A stretch of 63,980 nt of DNA, counting the filler, from Asterionella formosa (lineage: Eukaryota): assembly GCA_002256025.1 (NCBI GenBank). It is 16 parts of 16 records of this genome, joined end to end, with 100 filler letters (N's around TTAATTAATTAA, not from the genome) between each part and the next. Parts side by side here need not be neighbours in the genome. Positions count along the whole stretch, not along the records: positions 1 to 21,924 come from NKIB01002913.1; 15 more parts are not named here. The stretch is one strand, 5' to 3'. The position numbers were made by a program, and so were the translations under genes. The notes beneath the pieces are model-generated. The model worked only from the letters and a program-made list of their open reading frames with translations, was not told the DNA's origin and did no database searches. Of the stretch, positions 1 to 19,309 are shown piece after piece (the stretch's first letter is position 1; every line of letters begins with the position of its first letter).

Positions 1-1403
1 ATTAGGTATGGATGGGTGTGATCTGCCCAAGGTCGAAGTCATTCTTGTGTGTACATTTTGTACAGACCATGTTTTATGTGTCGGTTTGACCTAAAATTCA
101 GGGTGTGAATAAAAAGTTTATCATGCCAGTACTAGCATGTAACACACAACACCCAGGTACCTGGTACCAGTACTATAAAATACCCGGTATGCATAGAAGA
201 TATTGGCGCACCGGCACTTTAAAAACTCTAAATAAAGCGAAATATGATTGTGCACAAATTTTAAATAAATAAATACTATGGCGAAAAAACTAGTATTATT
301 GACGAAGTTGACAGGGGATGTGTATGAAGCGCGCATTGAAACCACAGAAAAACAGCAGGAGAATTCGGAATACAGGCAGGCTGAGGAAAAATTGAGAACC
401 CATGGGAGCCAATTAAAACATTCCTAGCAAAAATTGAAGATGAGGTTCGAAAGCAAGCAAGCGACATGTTAACCACACAAGAAAACGGTCATAGAAGAGT
501 CGATCTGCCAGAGAACAACCATGCAGAGGCTTCAAGGCAGAAAGCTCACAATTTTTTGAATTAGTTTTCGACAAAAGCAAATCATTGATCACCAAGCCTT
601 GCAAATTTATAGTCTCAAGATAAAAATTCACTCGCCCATGGCTAATGTGCAAAACTCGACTGCAGCTATGATGGGAAACCGGAGAAAAGGATCTACCCAA
701 GCTACTTAGAACCAACTACGAATCTAGATTAGTTGGTGCAACAAATCAACCTCAACAAAGCATCAAAAGAGGAATAAAGGAACATTTGCAGAAAAGGCAG
801 TCGAATGAGTCAGGAATTGAGTCGAAGTACCGGTAACTTGTTCGTGGAAGGCCTTTTTTATATGGCTTCAGCTTTTCTCGTATTTGTTGAAAAAGCCATG
901 CAATGGCTGGGGTACAACTGATTTGGACCAAAAAACGTAGACAGCCACTCTTGGGCCGGTATAAAACTAAAGAACTGGGACGAGATTGCAGTGTTCAAGT
1001 GGAACGAACAATTCTGTTGAAGAACTTTGTCTAATACAGATTTATATATAATTTTGACAATTATTCGTCTCAAACCGTGTGATTATACCCCGTTTTGACT
1101 ATGAGTACAAAAATGAAAGTTTGTACATATGACTCTCGGTTTTTAGGTGTATATTTTCCACAACTATTCCTACTGTTGCAAGGTACCCAGGTACCAGGTA
1201 CCAGGTATCATGTCATATACCGGTAAGTATTTTGTGCTGCCTTGGCTCGCCATCAGCCACGCTGTCGTTCTTTGGCTGAAGAGCCATCATTGCGTCTTGT
1301 CTTTTGTTGCATTGTAATTCCTCCATCAGCATCACTACTGCATTGCTTTGCTTTGCTTAAGATCCACAAGCACTCCTCTACATAGCAGCAAGCAAACAGA
1401 GAC

Positions 1404-4400
1404 ATGAGTAACAAGACGACTACGGAAAGCCCACCAGTACGACAGCAGCACAGTAGTACGACCACCAAACTCCCTGTTGCTCCCCTTCCCCTTCCTCCTC
1501 CTGTGCTACTCATGTCGACGACAGCCACAACTCCACCACCACCACCAGTACTAGAGGCTGTGCGTTCTACAGTAGAACGCATGCCAACATTAGCATCTGC
1601 ACCAAACAGTGGAATGAACATCAACATTACCGGTACTCAAACAGCTTCTACGACTCAGCCATCGTTTGGTGCTTTGCCCCTTCCACCTCCTCCACCACCT
1701 CCTCCCCCTTTGATACCTCCACATTCAAGCACAGTGGTGATGGATAATCCTAGATTTGCAGCAGTGTCTGCCCTCCCTCCACCACCGCCACCCAAAACAA
1801 CACCAAAGGCAGCCGTTGAACAAGTTCTTGAGGAACCCATTCTCATTCCTCCCAACCGGGTGGATAGGACCACCTTTGCTGCTACTTCCAATCAGACATC
1901 TGCAGCTTCAGTATCCTTATTTTTGGCGAAACGACAAACACAATTACCTATACTACTATTGGCATCAGAACAAGCACAACAAATGGCATGGAAGAATCAG
2001 TTACACTTGGTTGATTTGTTTCAAGGTCTTGTACAAGATCTGTCATCGGTTGTTAATTCACTACCATTACCACCGTTTCGAAGTGTGGTCAGCAATAGTA
2101 GCAACAGCACTACAAATACTACATTATCATGGAACAACATGTCCATTGGATTCCATGATTCAATGATACAAATGTCACCCTCACGGGCACAAGAATTATT
2201 ACAGCAATATGCACAACTGCTAGCAACAGATGGGAATGTTATGGAAGAATTGGATTTATTAGAAGATCAAGTGGATGCATTGATATGTGATTATGAGACT
2301 ACTATTACTCGCGGTGCCAATGGCACCACCAACAACAACAACTATCCACAACAAGACTATAAATCAGATATGCAAAAAAGTTTGGACCGGCAAGCACAAT
2401 TGGAACAAATTACAAAAGATGCTTTTGCATTAACATCACCACCAAATATACCATGGCTACGTCGATTTAGAGCTGCGTTGGATGAATCTACCAATTGGGT
2501 AGAACATGATTTAATTGCTACACCTGCTTTGGCATTGATTGTGGTGTCCACACAAGAAGTAGATGATGATATTTTACAAGTTGCCAAGGCTCTGTACTAC
2601 TCACCACATTACTTACCAGACGCATATACCAATGGGACATTAGACCCTGCATCCTTACGGAAGGAAGTTTTGGTGCTGCATGATTCTGTGCATGGACCAA
2701 CAAACTTCAGAGAAGATGACATTTTGCCACAATTTAAAAAAGCTTTCGGAAGTGGGGCGACAATTTTGAGAATTAATAGTATTCTCCCGACCATGGCAAA
2801 GACATTGGAACTGGAAAATACAACTGACTTGTGGGGCGGTGGAGGGAAACGAGGAAATAGATTGTCGCATTCAGATCGATTGAGTATTAGGCGATATATG
2901 GCGTCCATTATTGCATCATCCTTAATTCCAGCTCTGGAACGACGGATATCAGATTTGAATCATATTGTTACGGAAAAGAAAAAAGGAGTCAGGAATGTAT
3001 TCAAGTCGTTATGGCGAGGTGCACCTCCTTCGAACAGCACGAAGGAACTCACATCATCGACGGCAGCAGCCGATTCTACAACGACTTTGACTGCCAACAA
3101 AATGAGCAAATATCGTTATGACTCTGTGGAATCTCAAGTACGATTGTTAGCGGATACGCTATTTTTAATCAAGGATTATGATGCTGCACTTAACATGTAC
3201 AAACTCATCAAAGATGACTATAAACATGATCGATCACTCTTGCACTATGCAGGAATTCAAGAAATGTTGGCCCTGTGTACACTTCTTTTGAATGAACGCA
3301 ACAATGTCAAAGAACTATTTGGTTACTTTGAAACGGCATTGTTCAGTTATACGCGAGCGGCTGAAGAAGATCGTGGTATTTTTCCCACTGCAGTTGCGAC
3401 CCGACCCACGACAGCTTCAGTCGCGACACGATTGGCCACCCGATTGTGTTTGGTCATGTCAGCTGCGAAACCAACCACTATGACTGTCGAACGACATTTA
3501 GAAGTGGCAGATTTATTAGCATCCGCATCCTCCAATGAAACCTCACTCGGAGCTGCTGTCTTGTTAGAACAATCTGCAGCACATTATTTCAAGGCTGGCA
3601 TGTATCGAAAGTATGCATTTCATACACTCATGGCAGGACATATGTTCCGATCGGGAAGTCAAGAACATCATGCGTTCCGATGCTTCACAGCAGCGTTGTA
3701 CATTTATCATGATGGACAATGGGATGAATTGCACAATCATTTGCGTTCGGCACTAGCGGCACAATTGTATGCACTGGGCCGTATGGCAGCCAGCGTTGAG
3801 CTATATGCCAAATTGGTTGGAACAACTGGTGGAGGTCGTGTGTCTGTTAAATCCCAACAAAAATTTGTCCATCATTTGTTGGACATTTGCAAAGACCATC
3901 CCAAAAAGGCACTTGTGGGAGCCGATCGTATGGCTGCACCGACCAGCAAACGTAAAGATCGGTANNNNNNNNNNNNNNNNNNNNNNNNNNNNNNNNNNNN
4001 NNNNNNNNNNNNNNNNNNNNNNNNNNNNNNNNNNNNNNNNNNNNNNNNNNNNNNNNNNNNNNNNNNNNNNNNNNNNNNNNNNNNNNNNNNNNNNNNNNNN
4101 NNNNNNNNNNNNNNNNNNNNNNNNNNNNNNNNNNNNNNNNNNNNNNNNNNNNNNNNNNNNNNNNNNNNNNNNNNNNNNNNNNNNNNNNNNNNNNNNNNNN
4201 NNNNNNNNNNNNNNNNNNNNNNNNNNNNNNNNNNNNNNNNNNNNNNNNNNNNNNNNNNNNNNNNNNNNNNNNNNNNNNNNNNNNNNNNNNNNNNNNNNNN
4301 NNNNNNNNNNNNNNNNNNNNNNNNNNNNNNNNNNNNNNNNNNNNNNNNNNNNNNNNNNNNNNNNNNNNNNNNNNNNNNNNNNNNNNNNNNNNNNNNNNNN

Positions 4401-6444
4401 NNNNNNNNNNNNNNNNNNNNNNNNNNNNNNNNNNNNNNNNNNNNNNNNNNNNNNNNNNNNNNNNNNNNNNNNNNNNNNNNNNNNNNNNNNNNNNNNNNNN
4501 NNNNNNNNNNNNNNNNNNNNNNNNNNNNNNNNNNNNNNNNNNNNNNNNNNNNNNNNNNNNNNNNNNNNNNNNNNNNNNNNNNNNNNNNNNNNNNNNNNNN
4601 NNNNNNNNNNNNNNNNNNNNNNNNNNNNNNNNNNNNNNNNNNNNNNNNNNNNNNNNNNNNNNNNNNNNNNNNNNNNNNNCTTTTACACACCGGCTTTCTG
4701 TCGTACGTCACCACCAGAAGGCGAAGAGGCGAATGGGGCTTGGAAATCTGCCAAGGCCGATGACCTCTTTTTTGTTGTTACCAAGGTGGATCTATCAATT
4801 CAACCAGGCAGCACTTTACTTGTTTCACTCAGTATTTGTCCCCTGGTACAAGGAGATCTGGAGATTCTGGGTGTTCGAAGCAAACTCTTTAATGACGTTT
4901 GGGTGTATCATCCTTTCAAAATTAAGGGTGCGTTGCTCCATAGCACATCTGGCGGTATCTCAAATCGTTTTCGTGCCGAGCCTATGCTTTTGAAGGCCAA
5001 GGTAGAGCAAGAAATGCCAAGGCTCACAGTCAATCTTATTTCAAGTCGGGGACCGCCACAAGATATGTCGCACGCCAATAGCGCTGTTATTCAAGGTCAA
5101 ATTAGCAGTTGGACCTTACAAGTTTCAAACAGAGGAAGCGCACCTGCAACAAATTTTACGCTCAAGACGAACCTTCCTTGGATCAAGGTACCTACAAAAA
5201 AGAACACCGAAGAAGAAGCAACGTCTGGATGTGTCGGGCCCAGTGGTACATTGCAACTCATTCACTTCCCATACGAACAGATCGATCCTGGGGAAAGCAT
5301 TGAAATTCCTATTTTGATTCGGACCACTGGTACTGCATTGCAAGATTTTTACATGCTTTACCGCTATGCCCACGCTGACGACGTCAAGAAGCACAGGTGG
5401 CTTCGGCAGATGATTTCTGTTCCTGTGTACCCATCTCTTCAGATCAAGGCTTCATTGATGCCCTCTTATTGGACCAAGGACGAACACGTTTTGTCAGTAG
5501 AAGTGACCAATTTCAAGAGTGGAAGAATGTTATTAGACAAGGTTGCGGTGGCAAGTAGAGAGTATCGCTTATTGCCTATTGACGGGCAAGTAGAGAATGG
5601 TGCAGACATGATGTTGGATTTTCAAGAACGGGTTTCCATGCATTACCGACTCGTCACTGATTCCACCATTTCAAACACGTGTATGTTGAGTGAATGTCCT
5701 TTGTCTGGAACAAGTTCGAATTCTCCTTCAATTTCTCAATGCATTGCAACAGACAGTGTTGATTACATTTGTTTAGAGAGCGCGAATTCACGATTTCGAG
5801 CAGCTGTGAGGGCACACGAAATCGAGCAAGGCTCGAATGGTGAAGACGAGGACCAGCAACCTCGCCATGTATCTCAAATTCGTCGTGCGAAGACAACCCT
5901 GTCTGATAGTGAAAACGAGGAGTTGCCCTCCCATCCAACTTCGATTGGCAGGATTTTTTCATTGGAGGATAGCAAGTCAGTTATCAGTTTGATGTGCTTT
6001 TGGAAATCAGTGGAAGATAACAGTGCTGACATTGTCTGTGGGCAACATCACGTCACTAATTTGGTCGTGAGACCCAAGACATCTTGTAAGGGCTGCCCGG
6101 TAACTATTACCTGTCACCATCCGATCTCTCTGTCACACGACTTTAACAAAGGACCAGCTCATATTCCATTTGAGGTGACGGTCCGAAATCGTCAAGTTGA
6201 AGCTTCAGTTGAGTTTGAGTTTGCCTTGGAGCGACAGAAGACACTTGAGTTCATGGGATGTGAGTGCTTCACATGGGAATTGGAAGGAGGCGACGAGCTC
6301 ACAATTCCACTACAAGCTTTGATTTCATCCCCTGGTCTTTATAACCTGCAGGCTGTGCGATTAACTGTTACCAAAGAGGGTAAGAAAGTTCCTTATCTGT
6401 TTCCATTGCAATGGATGGTCACTGTCATTAGTAAATCAGTCTAA
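1404..6444 (+). CDS. TRAPPC8: TRAPP III subunit TRAPPC8/Trs85 (interrupted by N gap 3965-4679)
   Basis: Long ORFs on both sides of the gap. Trs85-type segments LIPALERRI, RLLADTLFLIKDYDAALNMYKLIKDDYKHD and RKYAFHTLMAGHMF; C-terminal beta-rich region; Pro-rich N-terminus. Confidence 0.85.
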
Positions 6445-7058: not shown

Positions 7059-8186
7059 CTAAATGACAAATGTAATGCCAAGAGCCTCTTCACACCATTT
7101 CCACACATTTTCCTGATTTTCCTTGGAGCACACCAATTTTTCACTGCCTTTCTTGATTTCATGACCATCGACAATCCTAGTCACAGGAGGTCCCTTCATT
7201 CCGCCCTTGGGGGCATAAAACGTTCCTGACGCGGCATCTTTTCCAAAGGCTGCCATTCCTGCATCTAAACTTCCGTTTTCGGCAGAATGGCCTCCAGGCA
7301 TGATCATTTTTGCCATCCAGCCACTCATTAAGCCATCCCCTTTGGTTGAATTTACTTGTAAATTCGACGATGCCAATCCTGGATCTGCCGAAAGGGCCTT
7401 GACCTTGGATCCCTTGGCCTTTAGTTTTTCATGCATGGCCATGGCAAATACAGCATTGGCCAATTTTGTCTGATGATATCTCGTCCATGGTCCTGCTTTT
7501 CCACAAAGTTCAGATATGATCCACGTCTGATCACCTCCCAAGGTATTTGGACCACATTTTCCAAAATACGCTTCTTCCAACATGCTCCCTGGACCAAAGC
7601 GAGCAGAACTGGAATGTGTTACCAACCGAGCTTCTCCTCTGTGAGTGGCAGCCTCTTCCAAGGCATCGTATAGCATGTAGGTGAGTAGAAAGTGTGACAA
7701 TTGATTGGTTTGCATTTGAATTTCAAATCCATCGGCCGTGCGTAAATCACGAGTTGCCATAATCCCCGCGTTATTGATCAACACATCCAACCCTCCATTG
7801 GCTGCAGCAATGGCTTTGACTTGTTCTGCAGCATTCTTTACAGAAGCAAGATCTTGCATGTCGCAAGTAATACTTTGAATGACGCATAATGGTGACGACG
7901 CCGACGACGAGTGAGCAGTGGCAAGGGCCAGCAATTCGTCTTGTCCCTTTTTGGCACTCGACGAATCTCGATTGAGCAACACAACGATTTTAGCATTCTT
8001 TCGAATAGCGATTTCAGCTGAATAGAATCCCAACGAGCCAGCAGATGTGCCCGTAATGGCAACGACCTTGTCTGTCAAATCCATAAAGATATCGGCGCTG
8101 GCGACGTACTCCTCAAACAGAGCGCGATCTGAATGGCCATGGTCTGTCAAGTTGTATTCTTTATTGCTGCTGAACATGCTTCCCAT
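7059..8186 (-). CDS. Short-chain dehydrogenase/reductase (retinol dehydrogenase/WWOX-like)
   Basis: VAITGTSAGSLG cofactor motif, CDMQDLASV, LINNAGIM, catalytic YHQTK. Likely start is the ATG at 8186 (MGSMFSS, possible N-myristoylation); the ORF-track start at 8336 is not ATG. Confidence 0.9.
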   Translation of the reverse strand: MGSMFSSNKEYNLTDHGHSDRALFEEYVASADIFMDLTDKVVAITGTSAGSLGFYSAEIAIRKNAKIVVLLNRDSSSAKKGQDELLALATAHSSSASSPLCVIQSITCDMQDLASVKNAAEQVKAIAAANGGLDVLINNAGIMATRDLRTADGFEIQMQTNQLSHFLLTYMLYDALEEAATHRGEARLVTHSSSARFGPGSMLEEAYFGKCGPNTLGGDQTWIISELCGKAGPWTRYHQTKLANAVFAMAMHEKLKAKGSKVKALSADPGLASSNLQVNSTKGDGLMSGWMAKMIMPGGHSAENGSLDAGMAAFGKDAASGTFYAPKGGMKGPPVTRIVDGHEIKKGSEKLVCSKENQENVWKWCEEALGITFVI

Positions 8187-10163
8187 GACTTGTTGAACTT
8201 GAAGAAGAGGAGGAGGAGGAGGAGATGGGAGTATAATGTGCCGCTGCTGTTGTTGCTTTCCGACAGGAGTGTTTACTATATATGACTCGTCACAAAATGT
8301 TATGTTGGATCTTTTGTTGGAATTGATGCTGTGCAATGGTCGACTTCACAGGGAATATAAACCGTGTAGGCAGGTATTTATCATAGGTACGGAAAAGGAT
8401 TCGACAACAATCGAAAGAATACAAATGAAACGCTTCGAAGGATTCATGCTTGTGGTCCATTATTCCTTCACTTGTAGGCTGGTTCCTGGTACCTGGTACC
8501 AGGTAGTTTGATTCTACACCTGTACGATGCTGTGTAGGCAGACTACCTGTAGTTCCAGGTTACTAGGAAGTACCTGGTAGGAGTATGAATATGGGTATAC
8601 TAATTACTCGCTCGCAAATGTCGGTCATTTCGCCGAGCGAACCTGAAATTTGGCGCCGGCAGGCACATATTTTCGACTTCTCCGACATTTAGACATTTCT
8701 AACGGTTTCGCGCTGGCCCATTAATTTCAATTTTATCAAAATCTAATTTTAAAGAAAGGTTTTCTGAAAAACCAGTTTCCAAACCCTGGTAAGACATGGA
8801 CTTTGAAATTTGGGGAATGAATTTCACCCTAAAATAGTTCCTGCCAAATCGAATTACAGCATAATAGTATTCAAAACGATGATGCCACTAATAGTGGTAG
8901 ATAACCGTTGTCCGAGCTAGCCAGCGCATTTTTTATTTCTCTATAAGATCTACAGGCGTGAATATCCGCCATGTCCTTATCGTCATATCGGGGAATTTAC
9001 CGTAACTTGAAAGTATCACATACTAATGAATGTCCTGTTGTTATAAACTCCGAGCTCCATGTACTTGGTGACCTACGTTACCTGAAACCATTGCTAACCC
9101 TTGGTACCTGGTACCAGGTACCAGGTACCCCATGTGCACTTCGTACTGTACATGATAGAAATACAATTCTCCTTCGTACAGTACATATGAAACGTTGGAT
9201 GAATCTATTGCACTACGTACATCGAACATAATAGCTTTATCCTGTGCATGCATGAGCGTAGAAAAGAAATATTAAGCAATTTTAGACTCCTTCAACAATA
9301 CACTATATGCATCTAAAAAAATGAAAAATACGCACGTAACAAGAATTCGGAGTAGATAAAAATCATCCATATGTATATTTGTCAGATATTTTCGGCAATG
9401 ACTATTTGCGTCTGAAAGTCTTTTCACACATTCTAATCCAATATTTTCGGTGAATCACCTTGCTCTCTGAAATTCCGTCTGTAAGTATTTATGTTCTTTT
9501 GTATGTTGAACCTTTTTAACTATTTTTGTAGATCGAGAGGAGTGACATAGCAATTGTACCGAATGTGCCGTCATTGTATTTTCGTCAATCAATGAACTGC
9601 CATTTCTCTCGTAGACAGACCCATAATATAACAATTTGAAATTTTGGTATCGGCAGACAAAAACATGCTTCATTCTCCTTCTGATTGTATGTGTGAGTCA
9701 TTATGATCGACACAAACCTAGACTTATCAATTAAATGATTGGGATGCCACCACAATTTCCAAGAAAATACCAGTAGTTTGTTTACCTTCAAGAATTTCTC
9801 CAAAGTGCTGCTTCTGAACATGCCCATTTTACAAAATATCGTCAAGTCAACAAGGTAAAAAATGATTTGGTTTGGAAACGACAAGTGACTATCTTTGGTT
9901 TTTGCTTTGACAGTTCTGCTGATGCCTGATGCAAGCGCGCGCGCTTTCATCACGGACAAGATTGTATGTGAGAACCAGAACATTCTATTTTTCGAATTGC
10001 TCACCTTCTTCATTTCGATTTGCCATTTCATTCTTCCCCTCAGATTGGTATCGGCTACAAACATCATTTCAACAACTCCCTTTCCGACAATCGTTTCGTC
10101 CTGCATCATATCTCTCGGCTTATCCAACAGCACCAGTGCACGCTTTTTTTTTGAAACAAAAAA

Positions 10164-12478
10164 ATGATCTTTATAGGAACACAAATGTTCTTGTTGGTTG
10201 TCGTCCTCTCAACGACAATGTGTGTTTCGTCGCATTCTCCTTCTAAACCACAAGGGAATGTCTTTCATGATGGGAAAGCAAGGTCAAATTTGAGACAGAA
10301 GGAAAACCGGCTTTTGGATACAACCACCGATGAATACCTTATTTGTCAATTGAAAGAGATTCATATCATGTTGAAAAAGGATAACAAGGTTCAGGGTGAA
10401 GTCATGCACAGTTGTTTGACAAGCCCCACACAAGAGGCCGATGCAGCAGCTGGAATGATTTATGCACTTCCAGAGGCATTTGTGCAAACTTTAGACGTTG
10501 AAAGTATTAAAACGGGTGGGAAGGCAATTGAAATTCAAGGAGCTCAAGCTTTGGATAATGTCATTGTCATTCCAGATGACGCCAATGTTGTTGTCTCACA
10601 AATTCCATCAAATCGCCAATTGGTAACAACGACTTTTGGGGTCAAAACGGTGTTGACACTTCGTGTGTCTTCGTTGGACGCTACAAATTCACTGGATGCA
10701 GCTACAATCTCCAGTCGACTGTATACCGGGAATGGGGCGACAATCTCAAGTATATATCACGATTGTAGTTGGAATTCGTTGAATTTAATTCCTGCTACTG
10801 GAAATGGGATTACAAATGGTGTTGCTGAAATATTTATCAATCAAAATACGGTGGGCGAGACTTCTCTATTATCTATCGAGAATGCGGTAACTGCAGTTGC
10901 TCAGAAACAAGTGCCAAATTTTGACAGCATTGATCATGTTATGTACTGTGTAAGTCGAGGAGCTTATTTGTACCTGCTGTGGAGCTTCGCCATTTGATTT
11001 CTAACGAATGTTGATTCATCATTGCAGATGCCAGCTGGAACAGCCGGAGATTGGATTGCCTACGGATATTCTGGATGGAGCAGAACGGTTTTCAATAACG
11101 AATGGTGCGGTTATGTCTCGTCGGCTGTACATGAAATAGGTCATAACTTGGGCCTTTCTCATTCGGCTAAGGGCAATGTCGAATATGGTGACAAACAAGG
11201 AATGATGGGTTTCTCGTATCGCAGAATCAATGCTCCAGCAATGTACGTCTCTTTACAAGAAAGAAATTAAATGATCGAAAATAAGCGTATCTCACTTTTG
11301 ATTTTTCCAACAACGCCCTCAGGTGCTTCAATGCTCACAAGCATTGGTTTCTCGGTTGGTACCAAAGTCGGTCTATCTCAGTGAATTTGTCGAGTGGATC
11401 ATGGCTAGGTAGAGTGGTAGCTTTTACTGACTATGATCAAGCAGGAACTGGAGACTATGTGGTAGTGAAGGTCGGTAATCTCTATATCCAATACAATAAA
11501 GCTGAGAAATTCAATTATCAGACGGTGGATAAGAAGAATCAATTGACGATTGTGACAGCTGACAATGACTCTGCGATTTCACATGTACTAGGTGGAATTG
11601 ACCTGACTAACAGCACATACCGACAGTCCGACTTTATTGGAAATACTGCTATCAACATCAAGATCTGCAGTGCCAGCGAAGAAAACGAAAAAAGTGTCTT
11701 TCTGGTCTCAATTTTTCTGGATTTTCAATCTTCAAGTTGTGATGGTCCAGTTAGCGTTCCACCGGACGACTTTGCTCCTCCCTTTTCGATGTGTTTTTCT
11801 GGATCAACAACGGTTGTCGTCAAGGATAAAGGCATCGTGCAAATGAACGATCTCCAGATTGGTGATCAGGTACTTGATGATGCAGGAAATTTCGAAACGG
11901 TGTACAGTTTTGGCCATCGCCACGAGACGCTTGATGCTTCGTTCCTTCAATTCCTGCCTTCTGGTATCGAAATTTCCAAAGATCACATGGTAAAGATCGA
12001 CGGGCGCTATATCCCCGCCTCTGCCGTAAAAGTTGGCAACGCACTTGAGACTGGAAATGGAGACTTTATAACCATTAGTGAAATTCGCACAGTGGTTCGC
12101 AAGGGAGTGTACGCTCCTTTCACTGCGTCTGGAACCATCGTGGTAAGCAACGTGAAAGTATCAAGCTACATCGCTTTTCAGGATTCTGATCGCCTAAAAA
12201 TTGGAGGGTGGACGACTCCTTTCAGTTATCAGTGGCTGGCCCATGCTTCTCAAGCACCTCACAGAGTATGCATCCGCATTTACGGCGCCTGCGACGAAAC
12301 ATATTCAGAAACCGGAATGTCGACTTGGATTGACGGACCCTACCAGTTAGGTTTGCATTTCCTTGAACTAAATGCTGTTGCCAAGGCATTGTTGTTGGCG
12401 CCTAGTCTGGTGTGCTTGTCAGTGGTTTTAGCCATTGAAAGTATCCTCAACTATAGTGGTCTACAAGAGTTATGGTGA
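10164..12478 (+). CDS. Secreted peptidase M11 (gametolysin-like) metalloprotease fused to a C-terminal Hog (Hint + SRR-like) domain; exons 10164-10949, 11028-11242, 11323-12478
   Basis: Hydrophobic signal peptide. GT-AG introns 10950-11027 and 11243-11322 restore one frame (HVMYC|MPAG, PAM|CFNAHKHWFLGWY). Zinc motif HEIGHNLGLSH plus YGD..GMMG Met-turn. Hint begins CFSG at 11792 and contains ISKDH and GVYAPFTASGTIVV. Confidence 0.88.
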
Positions 12479-14205: not shown

Positions 14206-17200
14206 TCATTGAATAGGGCAAATATCAAAGCAACAACCACATGCCAACACACAGCCAACCATGGTGGTAGTCACTTGGTGTAGATTCTCGCAAATGCCCA
14301 ATGGAACTTCTCCGACAAAACAATTCCCAGCAATAAAAAATTCCTCGAGCTTTGTGAGCATACCAAGCGAAGCGGGCAACGAACCAGTCAAATTATTGTT
14401 TGCCACGTCAAGCAATGTGAGCAGGTCAAGCATCCCCCGCTCAGAAGGCAACGACTTGAATAACTTGTTATTTTGAAGTTCTATCGCTTTGAGGATTAAT
14501 AACGGGCCAATGGAAGTGGGGATGATTCCATCAATGCGATTGTCATTCAAGGCAATGCTTTCAAGGTTCGTCAATCCACTGAGATTTTCAGGAATAGAAC
14601 CTGTCAAACTGCAGTTGTTGAGGTGCAATTCACGAAGAGCCCCAAGATTCCCGTCTACTTCACTGATGCGACCTCCGAGATTATTGTTGCTTAACGCTAG
14701 AAATTCAAGATTGGAAATTTTTCTCAAGAACTCAACAGGAATGCCTCCAGTTAGAAGATTGTTGGAGAGGTCGAAGGAACTCAACGAGGAAGAGAATCCC
14801 AGAGGAATGGTGCCAGTAAACCGTTTACCTGAACCTCCAAAAAACTCAAGCAGTGACCAACCAACATTTCCTGAGGCAGGGACGGGGCCAGAGAAAGAAT
14901 TTTCTGAGAAATCAATGTACCGGAAGGTTAGAGTGTAACCGATCAAAGGTGAAATTATGCCAGTCAGCTGATTGTATGAGATGTCAGATCGTTGAATTTT
15001 GAAAGCAGTTACATCAAAGTATGTTCTATTGTAAATCAACTGCAGGAAGGCTTCCCGAAATACGATTGTGAGATAGGGTGACCTCTTTTCGTCGAATCAT
15101 TTCCTTATTCAAATCCGGCAAATGTTCCAGAAAATCGGTTGTTGTCTAGCCAGATAAATGTAAGAGACGTTAAACCAGCAAAGGTGGGAATCGTCCCATT
15201 CAACAAGTTGCTCTTGACGTCCAATGTCCCTAATGAAACGAGATTGGAAATATTTTGCGAGAGTGTCCCAGTGAGTTTGTTCTTGGAGAGATACAAATTT
15301 TTCAATAGTCCAAGAGTGTATATTGAGGACGGGATTGTACCAGTCAATGAGTTATCCATAAAGTCAAGAACGAGTAGGTTCTGAAGATTTCCAATCCCAC
15401 TAGGAACTGGTCCACTTAACTGATTGGCACTCAAATCAAGATTAACAAGATTGGTCAAATCCGAAATCTCTGGAGGTATCGTTCCATTGATAGCATTTTT
15501 TGCAAGACGAAGAAGAGTCAAACCCTCAATTAAACCGATCTCGCTTGGGATTTGGCTGCTGAGTCCATTTCTTGTCAAGTCGATTCCAGTTACAACTTGT
15601 TTTTGACTGCGGTCGGATGCACAAGTGACACTGATACTCCAGTCACAAACATGAAGGGTCGGCGACAGCCATTGCTCTTGTTCCAACCAATTCTCACCTT
15701 TCATGGCATAGTAGAATACGGTTAAAATGTATCGTTCAGAGAAAATCAATCCTACGCCTTCGGTATCAAATTCATCCACTGATGACAACCAACCAACAGC
15801 TAGATGCTGTGGCGATTCAGGAGTTAAGACAGTTTCAGAACCAGAAATAGCAATCGCTGCCATTTCAATATCTGCCGCAATGAAGGAAGGAGCAAATGAT
15901 GGTGATCCAGTGCTTGAAATTGTATCAACTGCTTGCACTGATTCACTTCCACAATATCGGATCACAGAAAACACAGTCACGCCCACAGCTACGCCTGCAA
16001 TGACAAAACAGAACAAGGCTAATAGGTATTTGAATCCAAAACTAGCAGACTCTGCATAGACAATATCAGTCTGTTCATCTGTGGCTGGCATCGCTTCAAT
16101 GACGTTTTCATTGTTGATCATGTCCGCTTCCACGTCCAGTCTCATAATTGTATTACTCCTGTTTGGGTTACGCTCGACTCGACGAGGTGCCCCAAAGGCC
16201 CGTCCTTCCATGTCGACAGTTTCAGGTCTATCAGCACGAGTCCAGTGAGCACGGCTTTGTGTCTGCTGCATTATGGAACGTTGTAACATGGGGGAGGCAC
16301 CTAGGGCTGTAGGAGCACTCACTTGCCGTGGGTAGCTATGGGCACCACCCATGGAAGCTTCCATGTGTTCTTGGTGAAAGAATGGTGGAATGCCATGCCT
16401 GAACCTAGAGTAACTCGAGTTATTTTGAGTCCTCTCAAGTGAGGGTTGATTTCCTTGTTCGTCAAATTGAGAATAATACGCTATTTGTGAAGCATCATTG
16501 GGATATGCACCTTTATGGAACATGTACTGATTCATAGATTCATCAACGTTTGATGATAGTTGAGAAAAATTATGCATGCTCCGTGCGCGTGTATTCGATG
16601 ATGATGGTCGAGCAAACGAAGGAGGTGAAATGGTATTAGACGAGGCAGATATCCTTTGTTGCTCATTCTGTTCACGTTTTGCACGAGATCTCCCTTGCGC
16701 CAAAGCACGAAACACAGCACTTGCGACACTACCTTCAGTGTTGTTGTTTTCATAATTCCAGCCCATCATCAACTTATTGTTTTCATCATCATCATCATCA
16801 TCATCATGGAATGATGCCTGATTGTCGCCATTGTCGATGCTAGCTGCTGTCGCTGCGGCTGAAGAGGAATAGGATGTTTCCATTCCCTGTCGTTGTTCGT
16901 GTTCAAACTGAGTGACCAATGCTTCTGCAACATCCGGATCAGTTCCATTAGAAATCATAAACTGAACTACCAAGTCGTGTGTTCCGAACCAGTTGGGCGA
17001 TGCATCAGCATTAGCACAAGCATAAGCATAAGCATAAGCATCAGCATTAGTGGCAGGTGTCGTCGTAGAAGGTCCCTCGGCAGCGTAGCCATCCTTATGT
17101 TTCTTTTTGTTTTGTTGTCTACGGGTGACGACTGAAAACTCGTTACTGTTGGGATTAACCTCATGTGCCATACCATCTGGATTGTCTTCAACTGGATGAG

Positions 17201-17606
17201 ACTGTCGAACAAATTCAGCTGCTGAATGAGCAGCGACGAGTCCAATGGAGGACAGAAACCTATCATGATGAGCCCCATCCTCATATTCGTTACGAAAAGA
17301 GGATGGATTCGAATTGGGCGGTTTATTATTCCTTTCCTTCTTCTTTTTCTTCTTCTTGATTGGATTCCCCCATTCGTCCACCTTTACTTTCTTCTCTCCA
17401 ACATATTTTCCGTCTTGGTCGTACCACACAACCAGTTTTGATTTTGGTTGTTTCGGACGCGTTGGCGTTTCCGAAGGCATCATCTTCACTTGGTCATTAG
17501 TAATTATAGACGATGAGTCTTCAAGAAGTTCCTCTCGAGATGGACCTGGCAGCATCGTCGGCACATTAGGGTCAACGGCATTTGTTTTCTCTTGCTGGAC
17601 CGACAT
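14206..17606 (-). pseudogene. Type-II membrane LRR receptor-like protein with two frameshifts near 15120 and 15040 (pseudogene or sequencing error)
   Basis: Low-complexity N-terminus, TM segment YLLALFCFVIAGVAVGVTVFSVI, cap SPQHLAVGWL..ERYILTVFYY..W..CDW, many LxLxxNxLxGxIP repeats. One repeat (LSHNRISGSLP) lies in a different frame between the two ORFs. Confidence 0.8.
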
Positions 17607-19309
17607 ACAGTATGTAACACCGTATTCTCACATATTATGACAGAGGCAATAATAAAATAATAATTAAAATAATATGGGCCGCCATTGTGAAAATTGGTCC
17701 CGGTAAGAATATTTATGGATGTATAAATATTTTTTGATTCCTCAAAACGTTATGAGAAAGGAAAAACAGCTAACTGTACTCACTCTTGCTGGTGAAAATA
17801 GTAGCATCAAATCGCCAGCACCCCTACCTTATTAGTGTCTTTACCGTTCCCATAGGACGGAGCCCAAATACAATATTTCTACCTGAGGGTCGGCTTACTC
17901 GAGAAAATTCTTTGATTATTAGTTACATAAACGTGAACATTATTATCATCGAGTTAAATTATTCGAAACCAATTTCACATGCATAGATGTACATATTGCC
18001 AAATGCCGTTCTGTATCGGCCGGCCACTCAAATATTTGCGGGAAACCAACTACCGGTACAACAAGCCACTGACATAATAATTATATCTTGAATAAAATAA
18101 CTGTCGTTCGGTATACCATACCGCCGGATATTTATCGGTTACATTCCTCAAAATCATCACCATTTTTGGGGTTGGTGCGCATTTCATGGTAATGGAACGC
18201 AAGTTGCCGTTGTTCTACTGTTATATCGTACTTTGTACGTTTGTTGAGATTAGAGAGATGGTTTGAAGAATAATAGGTCCTCATGCATCTGCATTTTGCT
18301 TGACATGGGCCAGAAGTGAAAATCGAAAAGGCCCAAAAATGTCTTTTTGGAACATAGTTGCCAATTTTTCTGAAGGTTGCGGCCCCGGCTTAACCCTAGT
18401 TTGAAGAAAATATTGCTAGGGTTGTGGAAACAGCGTGGAACAGGGAGTTTCTTCCTACTATGAATTTTACTATGAATTTGCATGATTTGAGTGTCCATTT
18501 GAATATTTGAATTAAATAGGAATTGGCACCAGATTGATAGAGTTCCATTTTAAACAAACAAAAATGATATTTAAAATATTTTTAATATATCCTCATTGCT
18601 GAGTGTAGATATATTTTGCTCACCACCAAAACACATTTATAAATCAGGAGTATGCCAACATGTATGCTCACTGTTTGTGTTCATAACATTATATTGAATC
18701 TACGCTGCTGTATGTAGTTTAAACATAACTTTATGCACAAAGGTATATATATAAATCAGTACAGTACCAGGTATACCAGTAGTACATAATCTTTGTTCAT
18801 GATGATGGAAGACAGGATGAAACTATTGCCGGTGTACCAGTACTGTTTTTACCTACTGGTATACAGTACATCTAATGCTTGTGGTTCAAGTGTGGCTGGC
18901 GTGATATCTATCTAACTGATGCCCCCCCCCCTCCCCATCACCAGCATTGCCTCGTCTAGTCAATGCATATTGCCTCTACAGTGGGGTTCACAAAAGTAAG
19001 AGGGGAAACCCAGCATAGATGTTGATCATGTTGCAACTATCTATAGTTGAAACATGATGAAAGATTCTCCAGCTGCTCACTGCCACTATCGGTACCTGTC
19101 TTCTCTTGTGTTTTGTGTGAGTACAAAAGAATCATAACCTGTTAGCTAAATAATTATATGCTAGTGCCTACGTTAACCAAAAGAATAATTGCATGTTTCA
19201 TTTTCTATGAAAAGAAATTTATTGGTGTTTGGTTCCACCGGCTCGAGAAAAGTGTACAGGGGGGCAAAGCTGTCGAATTATATGGCGCATCTTCTGGGGT
19301 GCTCCAGTA

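Follow-up and report, generated by a model that had tools for sequence, protein, structure and literature searches.

Can a diatom gene join a secreted metalloprotease to a Hedgehog-type autoprocessing module, and what would such a module do there? The question is raised by positions 10,164 to 12,478 of a 63,980-nucleotide stretch of Asterionella formosa DNA (GenBank assembly GCA_002256025.1), hereafter the window. An earlier note, made from the sequence alone, had read three open reading frames (ORFs) of this region as one gene once two GT-AG introns were removed. It had assigned to the product a signal peptide, an intact metzincin site, a "complete" Hog module whose Hint domain is followed by two segments resembling the helices of the Hedgehog sterol-recognition region (SRR), and a hydrophobic tail. 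The gene, referred to here as M11-Hog, is real, spliced and expressed. Its product is best explained, as a whole, as a type I membrane precursor that would free an M11 protease ectodomain by means of a C-terminal Hog cassette, a reading to which we assign a probability of about 0.7.

Gene structure and transcription

The gene is divided over three collinear + strand ORFs in the ORF track, as the earlier note had remarked, and these were joined over two introns into a product of 718 residues. The stop-to-stop ORF at 10155-10997 terminates within intron 1. ATG 10164 is the first in-frame ATG, and an upstream in-frame stop is found at 10152-10154. Eleven public RNA runs contain part of the stretch, and contigs from four of the 11 were examined; the five that contain at least half of the words sampled are metatranscriptomes from lakes or freshwater. 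In contigs X1 and X2, which come from two different samples of one study, the joints 10949 to 11028 and 11242 to 11323 were both exact, which confirmed the two GT-AG introns and the single joined protein. X1 (2501 nt, word depth 136.5) extends past the Hint exon into the 3' untranslated region (UTR) to 12700, and X2 (2520 nt, word depth 28.6) does so to 12613. Because both run through the Hint exon, the transcripts neither stop before the Hint part nor skip it, but include it whole.

A database protein of 711 residues, P0004, corresponds to residues 8-718 of the spliced product with N214Y as the sole difference, and reads across both junctions (HVMYC/MPAG and APAM/CFNAH, the slash marking the joint). 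Its cluster holds 16 members from several collections, including four more forms of 700-711 residues, which lie on contigs of about 2.5 kb. Intron 2 interrupts the M11 motif P-x-M/CFN, and the joined MCFN is conserved in M11 relatives.

The difference at residue 214 (Asn to Tyr) corresponds to A>T at 10803, which is present in X1, X2 and P0004 and is probably a strain or allele difference; further single-base differences were present.

The protease half

By its profile match the N-terminal half belongs to peptidase family M11, and proteolysis is predicted. Peptidase_M11 (PF05548) matched P0004 at residues 168-384 with an E value of 6.2e-13 and 48.9 bits (cut-off 21), and exon 2 alone with an E value of 6.8e-7; with the Hint match described below, both families that had been proposed for the spliced protein stand above their Pfam cut-offs. 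HEIGHNLGLSH and GMMGFSY are both intact where they had been placed, the latter being taken as the Met-turn region by likeness to metzincins. HExGHNxG was kept in all 23 relatives that cover the site (alignment A3), and the final His is replaced by Asn in one of them, P0175.

A full-length AlphaFold model was obtained with a predicted local distance difference test score (pLDDT) of 88.1 and a predicted template modelling score (pTM) of 0.69. In P0004 numbering, it has a disordered N-terminus (1-47), a catalytic domain at about 152-390 and a low-confidence linker (471-479). NRQL at 10611, whose RQL the earlier note had taken as the end of a pro-region, lies in this model in the stretch that links the N-terminal beta domain to the strand with which the catalytic domain begins. 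The Pfam scan gave no family for the N-terminal beta-rich domain, which is possibly a pro-domain. In a language-model protein atlas the nearest clusters were M11/M6 look-alikes with scores all below 0.9, to be taken as leads only. No Hedgehog N-terminal signalling family was found in the Pfam scans, in which the N-terminal part was Peptidase_M11; having no Hedge signalling domain, the protein would not count as a bona fide Hedgehog protein. An N-terminal hydrophobic segment similar to the probable signal peptide (mean at least 2.2 over 12 residues) was seen in five of 11 other cargo-Hog relatives (P0014, P0043, P0209, P0005 and P0017).

The Hint domain and its active site

The Hint family (PF01079) matched P0004 at residues 483-612 (E 1.9e-17, 64 bits, cut-off 29.7) and exon 3 alone with E 5.6e-18 and 65.7 bits. 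The Cys1 motif CFSG, the S-x-x-H motif and the Hint segment quoted earlier (GVYAPFTASGTIVV) were all in place. PT-HINT, Hom_end_hint, Hint_2 and Vint remained below the Pfam cut-offs in exon 3. When exon 3 was searched with phmmer against the PDB sequences, the matches consisted only of Hedgehog HhC chains and one bacterial intein-like (BIL) domain, and a profile of 75 relatives matched 6tyy (E 1.3e-18) and 1at0 (E 2e-16). The last 235 residues were also modelled with AlphaFold (the Hog model; pLDDT 94.9, pTM 0.90). Foldseek placed 6tyy at rank 1 (E 1.1e-9, TM 0.78 by target) and 1at0 at rank 2, with inteins, BIL and Vint domains ranking below; comparison of a predicted structure with HhC, proposed as a check, therefore gave fly Hedgehog HhC as the best fold match.

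Residues were counted in 75 aligned relatives (alignment A1), and positions were equated with those of Hedgehog via hidden Markov model (HMM) alignments. The Hedgehog active site is made up of C1, D46, T69, H72 and C143, with D46 activating the cholesterol hydroxyl (PMC12054796). Cys1 was kept in 74 of the 75 relatives. His occupied the D46 position in all 75 (His532 in the M11-Hog protein), the T69 position held Ser in 63 and Thr in 12, and the H72 position was His throughout. Thioester formation and the general base look conserved, because Cys1, the His at the D46 position and S/T-x-x-H are near-invariant. Hedgehog carrying D46H still gives processed HhC (PMC12054796), and the title of PDB entry 6tyy is 'Hedgehog autoprocessing mutant D46H'. 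Hedgehog thus tolerates a change of Asp46 to His, and His532, as aligned, is the natural counterpart of this engineered substitution.

In 21 of the 75 relatives the Cys143 position (12164-12166, A1 position 132) is taken by Asn, with which inteins end; no C-extein follows in them. Intein identity was considered for the domain itself and rejected: the Hint domain ends in VSSY and is followed by the helical tail instead of a C-extein, and the intein families of Pfam were below their cut-offs.

The post-Hint region and the predicted C-terminal anchor

Beyond the Hint domain, the Hog model has helices at 153-160, 162-171 (WLAHASQAPHR...) and 185-199 (GMSTW...), predicted with pLDDT 90-98, and a loop with two cysteines. 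Both post-Hint segments quoted in the earlier note are present. Many residues of this region were strongly conserved in the 75 relatives, namely W155 (63), H158 (67), P163 (61), H164 (68), R165 (73), E176 (66), Y178 (67), G182 (74), S184 (70) and W186 (74). The spacing of H641, P646 and R648, H-x4-P-x-R, is that of H374, P379 and R381 in human SHH, which form the conserved HPR motif of the first SRR helix and are critical for cholesterolysis in cells (PMC7906309). The Hedgehog SRR has a helix-loop-helix form, of which both helices are needed (PMC7242414). The likeness to the SRR appears at the level of motif, position and secondary structure only. The tail gave no significant Hedgehog match in the searches reported below, and it is therefore called an adduct-recognition-like region.

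The hydrophobic tail that had been noted after this region was found as described, and is predicted to be a transmembrane helix (mean hydropathy 2.26 over 19 residues). In 166 of 168 relatives the final 70 residues contained a hydropathy window of at least 1.6, its correspondence to the same helix not being checked for each relative. We know of no C-terminal transmembrane helix in animal Hedgehog. Together with the signal-like segment at the N-terminus, the helix would make the precursor a type I membrane protein, and the Hog active site would stand just above the bilayer. A glycosylphosphatidylinositol (GPI) signal was considered for the C-terminal stretch and rejected by eye, since 13 residues follow it and the model has one 26-residue helix.

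The family of Hog cassettes and their cargo

Exon 3 was searched against 1.84 billion protein cluster representatives (50% identity clusters). At least 5,035 Hog-cassette clusters were found at E<=1e-3 and 465 at E<=1e-30, the matches typically covering query positions 145-375 and lying at the C-terminus of the matched protein. In a cassette profile of 235 HMM positions, 163 of 168 relatives extended from position 12 or earlier to position 195 or later, which takes in the Hint domain and the post-Hint region without the membrane helix. PF01079 stood C-terminally behind varied cargo in all 70 relatives scanned with Pfam. Protease cargo in these 70 included trypsin (4), Trypsin_2 (1), M43 (3), subtilase (2), M11 (2) and M14; other cargo included multicopper oxidase, GDSL lipase, TrAA12, a beta-lactamase fold, sulfatase, leucine-rich repeats (3) and DUF7467. 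The cargo family was not recognised in 44 of the 70 rows of the Hog tree. One relative of 798 residues, P0046, has two tandem Hint-module stretches (PF01079, 178.8 bits), and another bears the automatic JGI name 'Zinc carboxypeptidase/Hint module'.

The search for the same architecture elsewhere was successful: further proteins with both M11 and Hint domains are P0014, P0040 and P0043, and among records that bear a name the nearest relatives come from diatoms (one from the transcriptome of Thalassiothrix antarctica, in the P0014 cluster, and one from Synedropsis). On these scans the M11 fusion is not special in itself, being one of many cargo types carried on the same cassette. The group reads as a variant of the Hog family marked by enzyme cargo, a predicted His general base, the lack of Cys143 and a putative C-terminal membrane anchor. 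It is very large, automatically annotated and apparently unstudied.

Among 19 M11 relatives found via the protease part (besides P0004), none matched PF01079. The nearest M11 relative, P0172, shares 59% identity over 246 residues. Where the Hog cassette would stand, it has a tail of some 320 residues, unrelated, rich in cysteine and without a Pfam family, the switch point being the same place, after the beta-sandwich domain or equivalent linker. As P0172 was called as an ORF on a genomic contig and includes an in-frame intron read as coding sequence, the tail should be treated with care.

Trees of the Hog and M11 domains were both made as 'quick' IQ-TREE runs. The Hog tree comprised 70 of the 163 profile-spanning cassettes (ids up to P0075, with cargo scanned). 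Its four M11 rows need four changes, of which the starred branches force at least three, and 25 changes are required when every cargo label is counted, where shuffling gave a mean of 25.6; cargo is scattered. Closest to the Hog domain of the M11-Hog gene are Hogs linked to trypsin, M14 and oxidase cargo. In the M11 tree (25 rows), the seven Hog-fused rows fell in one starred clade of 12 (99), with three changes against a shuffled mean of 6.3. The scatter of cargo on the one tree, set against the single clade on the other, indicates that cassette and cargo differ in history, which may have come about through the swapping of modules or through homogenisation within genomes. The idea of one old fusion gene with co-inherited domains was rejected on the same patterns.

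Proposed mechanism and alternatives

The product would be a 718-residue secretory precursor in the order signal peptide, beta domain, M11 domain with beta sandwich, linker and Hog cassette, the cassette being made up of a Hedgehog-type Hint domain, the conserved helix-loop-helix and the C-terminal transmembrane helix. In the lumen of the endoplasmic reticulum or Golgi, Cys491 would attack the carbonyl of Met490 in an N-to-S acyl shift aided by Ser552-x-x-His555. The thioester would then be resolved by a nucleophile activated by His532, at the place of Hedgehog Asp46, and the protease ectodomain would be released from the membrane-anchored Hog remnant. Self-cleavage before Cys491 is predicted and judged likely, and the natural reading is that this cleavage would free the protease from a membrane tether. 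As nucleophile the 3-OH of a membrane sterol is put foremost, so that the protease would end up at the cell surface with a lipid in ester linkage; the main alternative is water, and plain release. A membrane sterol is favoured because the helix-loop-helix would lie beside the anchor and next to the bilayer, and a membrane lipid is favoured over water because a bare Hint domain would suffice for hydrolysis. A sterol adduct on the released protease is put forward tentatively, at somewhat less than even odds. Green algae employ M11 enzymes in the lysis or remodelling of walls and matrix, and by analogy the protease may have a role in wall or matrix remodelling. A gametolysin-like 'autolysin' is induced early in the mating of Pseudo-nitzschia multistriata (PMC8769554); no link of the M11-Hog gene to sex is claimed.

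Several findings weigh against this reading or parts of it. The PF01079 match of the M11-Hog protein covers only profile positions 12-163 of 213. The Hedgehog Cys143 position is occupied by Ser615, and in the 75 relatives by Ser (33), Asn (21), Thr (14), Cys (5), Ala (1) and Ile (1). In Hedgehog, C143 bears a branched thioester intermediate, and C143A and C143D abolish processing (PMC12054796). With this residue replaced and variable, the Hedgehog route could therefore not be followed in full. The residue preceding Cys1 is bulky, Met490 here and mostly Phe (25), Ile (12) or Leu (7) in the 75 relatives, in place of the Gly of Hedgehog. When a profile of the tail alone (alignment A2, 12 sequences) was run against the PDB sequences, a set that includes full-length fly Hh and human Shh, no Hedgehog chain was matched at E<=10; its sole match, 3nwj_A (E 1.3), was treated as chance. 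None of the 12 post-Hint tails alone matched PF01079, and only 24 of 70 relatives align to profile position 198 or beyond of 213, although these 24 alignments, like the position, form and motif spacing of the tail, also speak for SRR homology. The signal peptide and the membrane topology, for which hydropathy is the one line of evidence, are probable. Lastly, two contigs from other studies than that of X1 and X2 retain intron sequence: X5 (10898-11243, depth 4.7) contains intron 1 and X7 (11251-11417, depth 6.4) part of intron 2.

The claims of the earlier note were qualified accordingly. A hydrophobic, signal-like segment was indeed seen at the N-terminus, but on hydropathy only. The Hog module has Cys1, S-x-x-H and the Hint fold, but "complete" goes too far, as Asp46 and Cys143 differ and homology of the tail to the SRR is tentative. 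The two post-Hint segments agree with the SRR helices in their helix-loop-helix form, H-x4-P-x-R spacing and position, but without significant sequence similarity.

The intron-bearing contigs may represent pre-mRNA (unspliced RNA, intron retention) or DNA carry-over. They are also what would be cited in favour of the three ORFs being separate genes or a chimeric assembly, with no fusion protein, but the high-depth RNA contigs link all three exons in frame, 711-residue proteins of the same cluster are present in several independent collections, the splice junctions restore conserved M11 motifs, and M11 and Hint domains occur together in other clusters too (P0014, P0040 and P0043). The likelihood of such an artefact is negligible, and it is ruled out by the RNA contigs with both joints. 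A more substantial rival is release by hydrolysis only, in which water resolves the thioester and the cassette is a self-removing membrane tether that adds no lipid; the tether would time or place the release of soluble exoenzymes. This accords with the missing and variable Cys143 equivalent, with a post-Hint tail that has no significant similarity to the Hedgehog SRR, and with cargo of enzymes that are normally secreted in soluble form (trypsin, subtilase, M14, sulfatase, multicopper oxidase), and the transmembrane anchor already accounts for membrane association of the precursor. Hydrolysis, however, would need no more than a bare Hint domain, while a 65-residue helix-loop-helix with near-invariant residues is kept along with the invariant His, and 163 of 168 relatives span the cassette profile through the post-Hint region. 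We regard hydrolysis only as rather unlikely.

The conserved helix-loop-helix could also belong to an 'adduct recognition region' in the sense of Burglin, the protease being passed to a different nucleophile with a hydroxyl or amine group, for example another membrane lipid, a glycan or a wall polymer. The tail is conserved yet not detectably Hedgehog-like in sequence, and the adduct of nematode Hog proteins was left open on the same ground by Burglin 2008 (PMC2362128). A non-sterol adduct is nevertheless improbable, as the H-x4-P-x-R spacing is that of residues critical for Hedgehog cholesterolysis in cells, and a module at the membrane surface beside a transmembrane helix favours a membrane lipid. 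Diatoms also make sterols, which counts against it further. Still less probable is that no self-cleavage occurs and that the Hint domain is a structural stalk of a permanently membrane-anchored ectoprotease. The two differing Hedgehog active-site residues and the bulky residue at position -1 would suit a stalk, but without catalysis it would be difficult to account for Cys1, the base-position His and S/T-x-x-H being retained by 74-75 of 75 relatives. The preferred reading, a type I precursor that would free its protease through the Hog cassette, is retained.

Other features of the locus

Coordinates are collected in Table 1. The optional 5'UTR intron was placed from a loose end of X1 at 10042 that matches 9825-9852; X2 is unspliced there. 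In the spliced leader, examined by eye, an upstream ORF would run from ATG 9820, and its TGA would overlap the main ATG (ATGA, 10164-10167); the RNA evidence for the spliced leader stops short of 9820, the start of this candidate ORF. Another X5 contig matches 10000-10103 and then 10158-10175 and skips 54 nt of leader beside T and A runs. Only 18 nt match on the far side, and the gap may reflect either an artefact or a variant with an indel.

The window contains 4,816 N. A tblastn search of the window with P0004 matched only this gene, and no second M11-Hog gene was found in it. A functional link to the neighbouring genes was considered and rejected, the flanking genes being unrelated in kind.

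Table 1. Features of the M11-Hog locus, in positions of the window (aa, residues of the spliced product)
Feature	Position	Strand	Basis or remark
Coding exon 1 (aa 1-262)	10164..10949	+	translation P0001, 262 aa; signal-like segment, N-terminal beta domain, M11 start
Intron 1, 78 nt, GT..AG, with in-frame stop	10950..11027	+	absent from RNA contigs X1 and X2
Coding exon 2 (aa 263-333 and two bases of Met334)	11028..11242	+	translation P0002, 71 aa
Intron 2, 80 nt, GTACGT..CAG	11243..11322	+	absent from RNA contigs X1 and X2
Coding exon 3 (aa 334-718 and TGA stop)	11323..12478	+	translation P0003, 384 aa
Probable signal peptide (aa ~1-24, core LLVVVLSTTMCV, end approximate)	10164..10235	+	hydropathy 2.53 over 12 residues
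N-terminal beta-rich domain (aa ~58-146)	10335..10601	+	model strands P0004 51-139, pLDDT mostly >85
Peptidase_M11 (gametolysin-type) catalytic domain (aa ~175-391)	10686..11494	+	PF05548; spans both introns
Zinc-binding motif HEIGHNLGLSH (aa 297-307)	11130..11162	+	intact
Putative Met-turn region GMMGFSY	11199..11219	+	intact
Beta-sandwich domain after catalytic domain (aa ~407-466)	11540..11719	+	model strands P0004 400-459, pLDDT >90
Linker ending in Met490, before predicted scissile bond	11720..11791	+	pLDDT <50 at P0004 471-479
Hint domain	11792..12172	+	PF01079; Cys491, His532, Ser552-x-x-His555, Ser615
CFSG, Cys1 motif (Cys491)	11792	+	
SKDH, S-x-x-H motif (Ser552-x-x-His555)	11975-11986	+	
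Quoted Hint motif GVYAPFTASGTIVV	12104-12145	+	present
Post-Hint adduct-recognition-like region	12173..12373	+	beta hairpin, helix 1, Cys-containing loop, helix 2
WLAHASQAPHR, helix 1 (H641/P646/R648)	12233-12265	+	
Second quoted post-Hint segment GMSTWIDGPYQLG	12314-12352	+	present
Predicted C-terminal transmembrane helix (aa 685-710), then 8-residue tail	12374..12451	+	Hog-model helix 202-227
Hydrophobic tail stretch	12374-12436	+	present as quoted
Optional 5'UTR intron, 189 nt, GT..AG	9855..10043	+	removed in some transcripts
Neighbour: TRAPPC8/Trs85-like trafficking subunit gene	1386-6444	+	
Neighbour: short-chain dehydrogenase gene	7059-8345	-	
Neighbour: leucine-rich-repeat protein genes	14206-17627	-	

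Significance and comparison with known systems

The earlier note knew of no characterised M11-Hog fusion, and a full-text literature search, from which subscription journals are mostly absent, likewise found no published study of M11-Hog or other enzyme-Hog proteins, of their anchor or of their chemistry. Genes with the Hint domain (IPR001767) have been counted without analysis in diatoms, with more than 290 in Pleurosigma pacificum and 112 in Seminavis robusta (PMC12803021, 2025), and Hint-domain proteins in sexual stages of Seminavis are mentioned in an Ectocarpus paper (PMC3879662). Hedgehog is described in the literature as the only protein to which sterol is attached covalently (PMC7242414, PMC12054796). 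The M11-Hog gene offers a concrete, expressed test case for adducts on Hog domains outside animals, a question that dates from Burglin 2008, and its family a direct test of protein sterylation outside animals. The family combines a natural D46H 'general base swap', the absence of Cys143 and a predicted added membrane anchor. It bears on the ancestral Hog chemistry, on whether the branched intermediate at Cys143 is essential, and on how diatoms display or release surface enzymes. A further use of the Hog cassette could be as a tag for self-cleavage or lipidation.

That the portable cassette is a general lipidation and release system for secreted enzymes of diatoms, and probably of other protists, is a doubtful extension, and we hold it to be unlikely. 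If true, it would imply a coat of exoenzymes ester-linked to sterol (M11, M43, M14, trypsins, subtilases, multicopper oxidases, sulfatases and lipases), and protein sterylation would be widespread and ancient, beyond Hedgehog, and workable without Cys143.

Hog proteins outside animals are already known; the M11-Hog gene adds a member to the variant that has enzyme cargo and a putative anchor. Nematode (warthog, groundhog, quahog), protist, red algal and moss Hog proteins likewise have a signal peptide, variable cargo and a Hog domain (PMC2362128). The protist Hog proteins of that survey are many, secreted, and mostly unrecognisable at their N-termini, and the cysteine of motif J is often Ser, Thr or Asp while motif K is kept (PMC2362128). 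Only GmGIN1 and Hoglet of that set have recognisable other N-terminal domains (PMC2362128), whereas known enzyme families are found here. The words 'diatom' and 'stramenopile' do not occur in the available text of the survey, and that text describes no enzyme cargo and no transmembrane anchor (PMC2362128).

On the protease side, PF05548, HExxHxxGxxH and the putative Met-turn region are shared with gametolysin and the Volvox VMP metalloproteases (M11); unlike in these, the M11 domain is fused to Hog, a fusion that the M11 tree shows in a single starred clade only. The order of pro-domain, metzincin-like domain and C-terminal beta domains is similar to that of an M6 immune-inhibitor-A-type zymogen (4yu6_B). 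This zymogen belongs to a different peptidase family, and the Foldseek match of the full-length model to it (E 3.8e-5 over 618 columns) had a TM of only 0.24; the weak match therefore allows a pro-domain as a possibility, no more.

The closest known system, by both sequence and fold, is HhC of animal Hedgehog (1AT0, 6TYY, PF01079), with which the M11-Hog protein shares Cys1 at the domain start and S/T-x-x-H. In both, the Hint domain is succeeded by a helix-loop-helix, in which H-x4-P-x-R has the spacing of human SHH, and secreted N-terminal cargo stands upstream. Unlike in Hedgehog, the cargo is a protease and not a Hedge domain, Asp46 is replaced by an invariant His, Cys143 by Ser and the Gly at position -1 by Met. 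The tail, not significantly similar in sequence, leads into a predicted C-terminal transmembrane helix.

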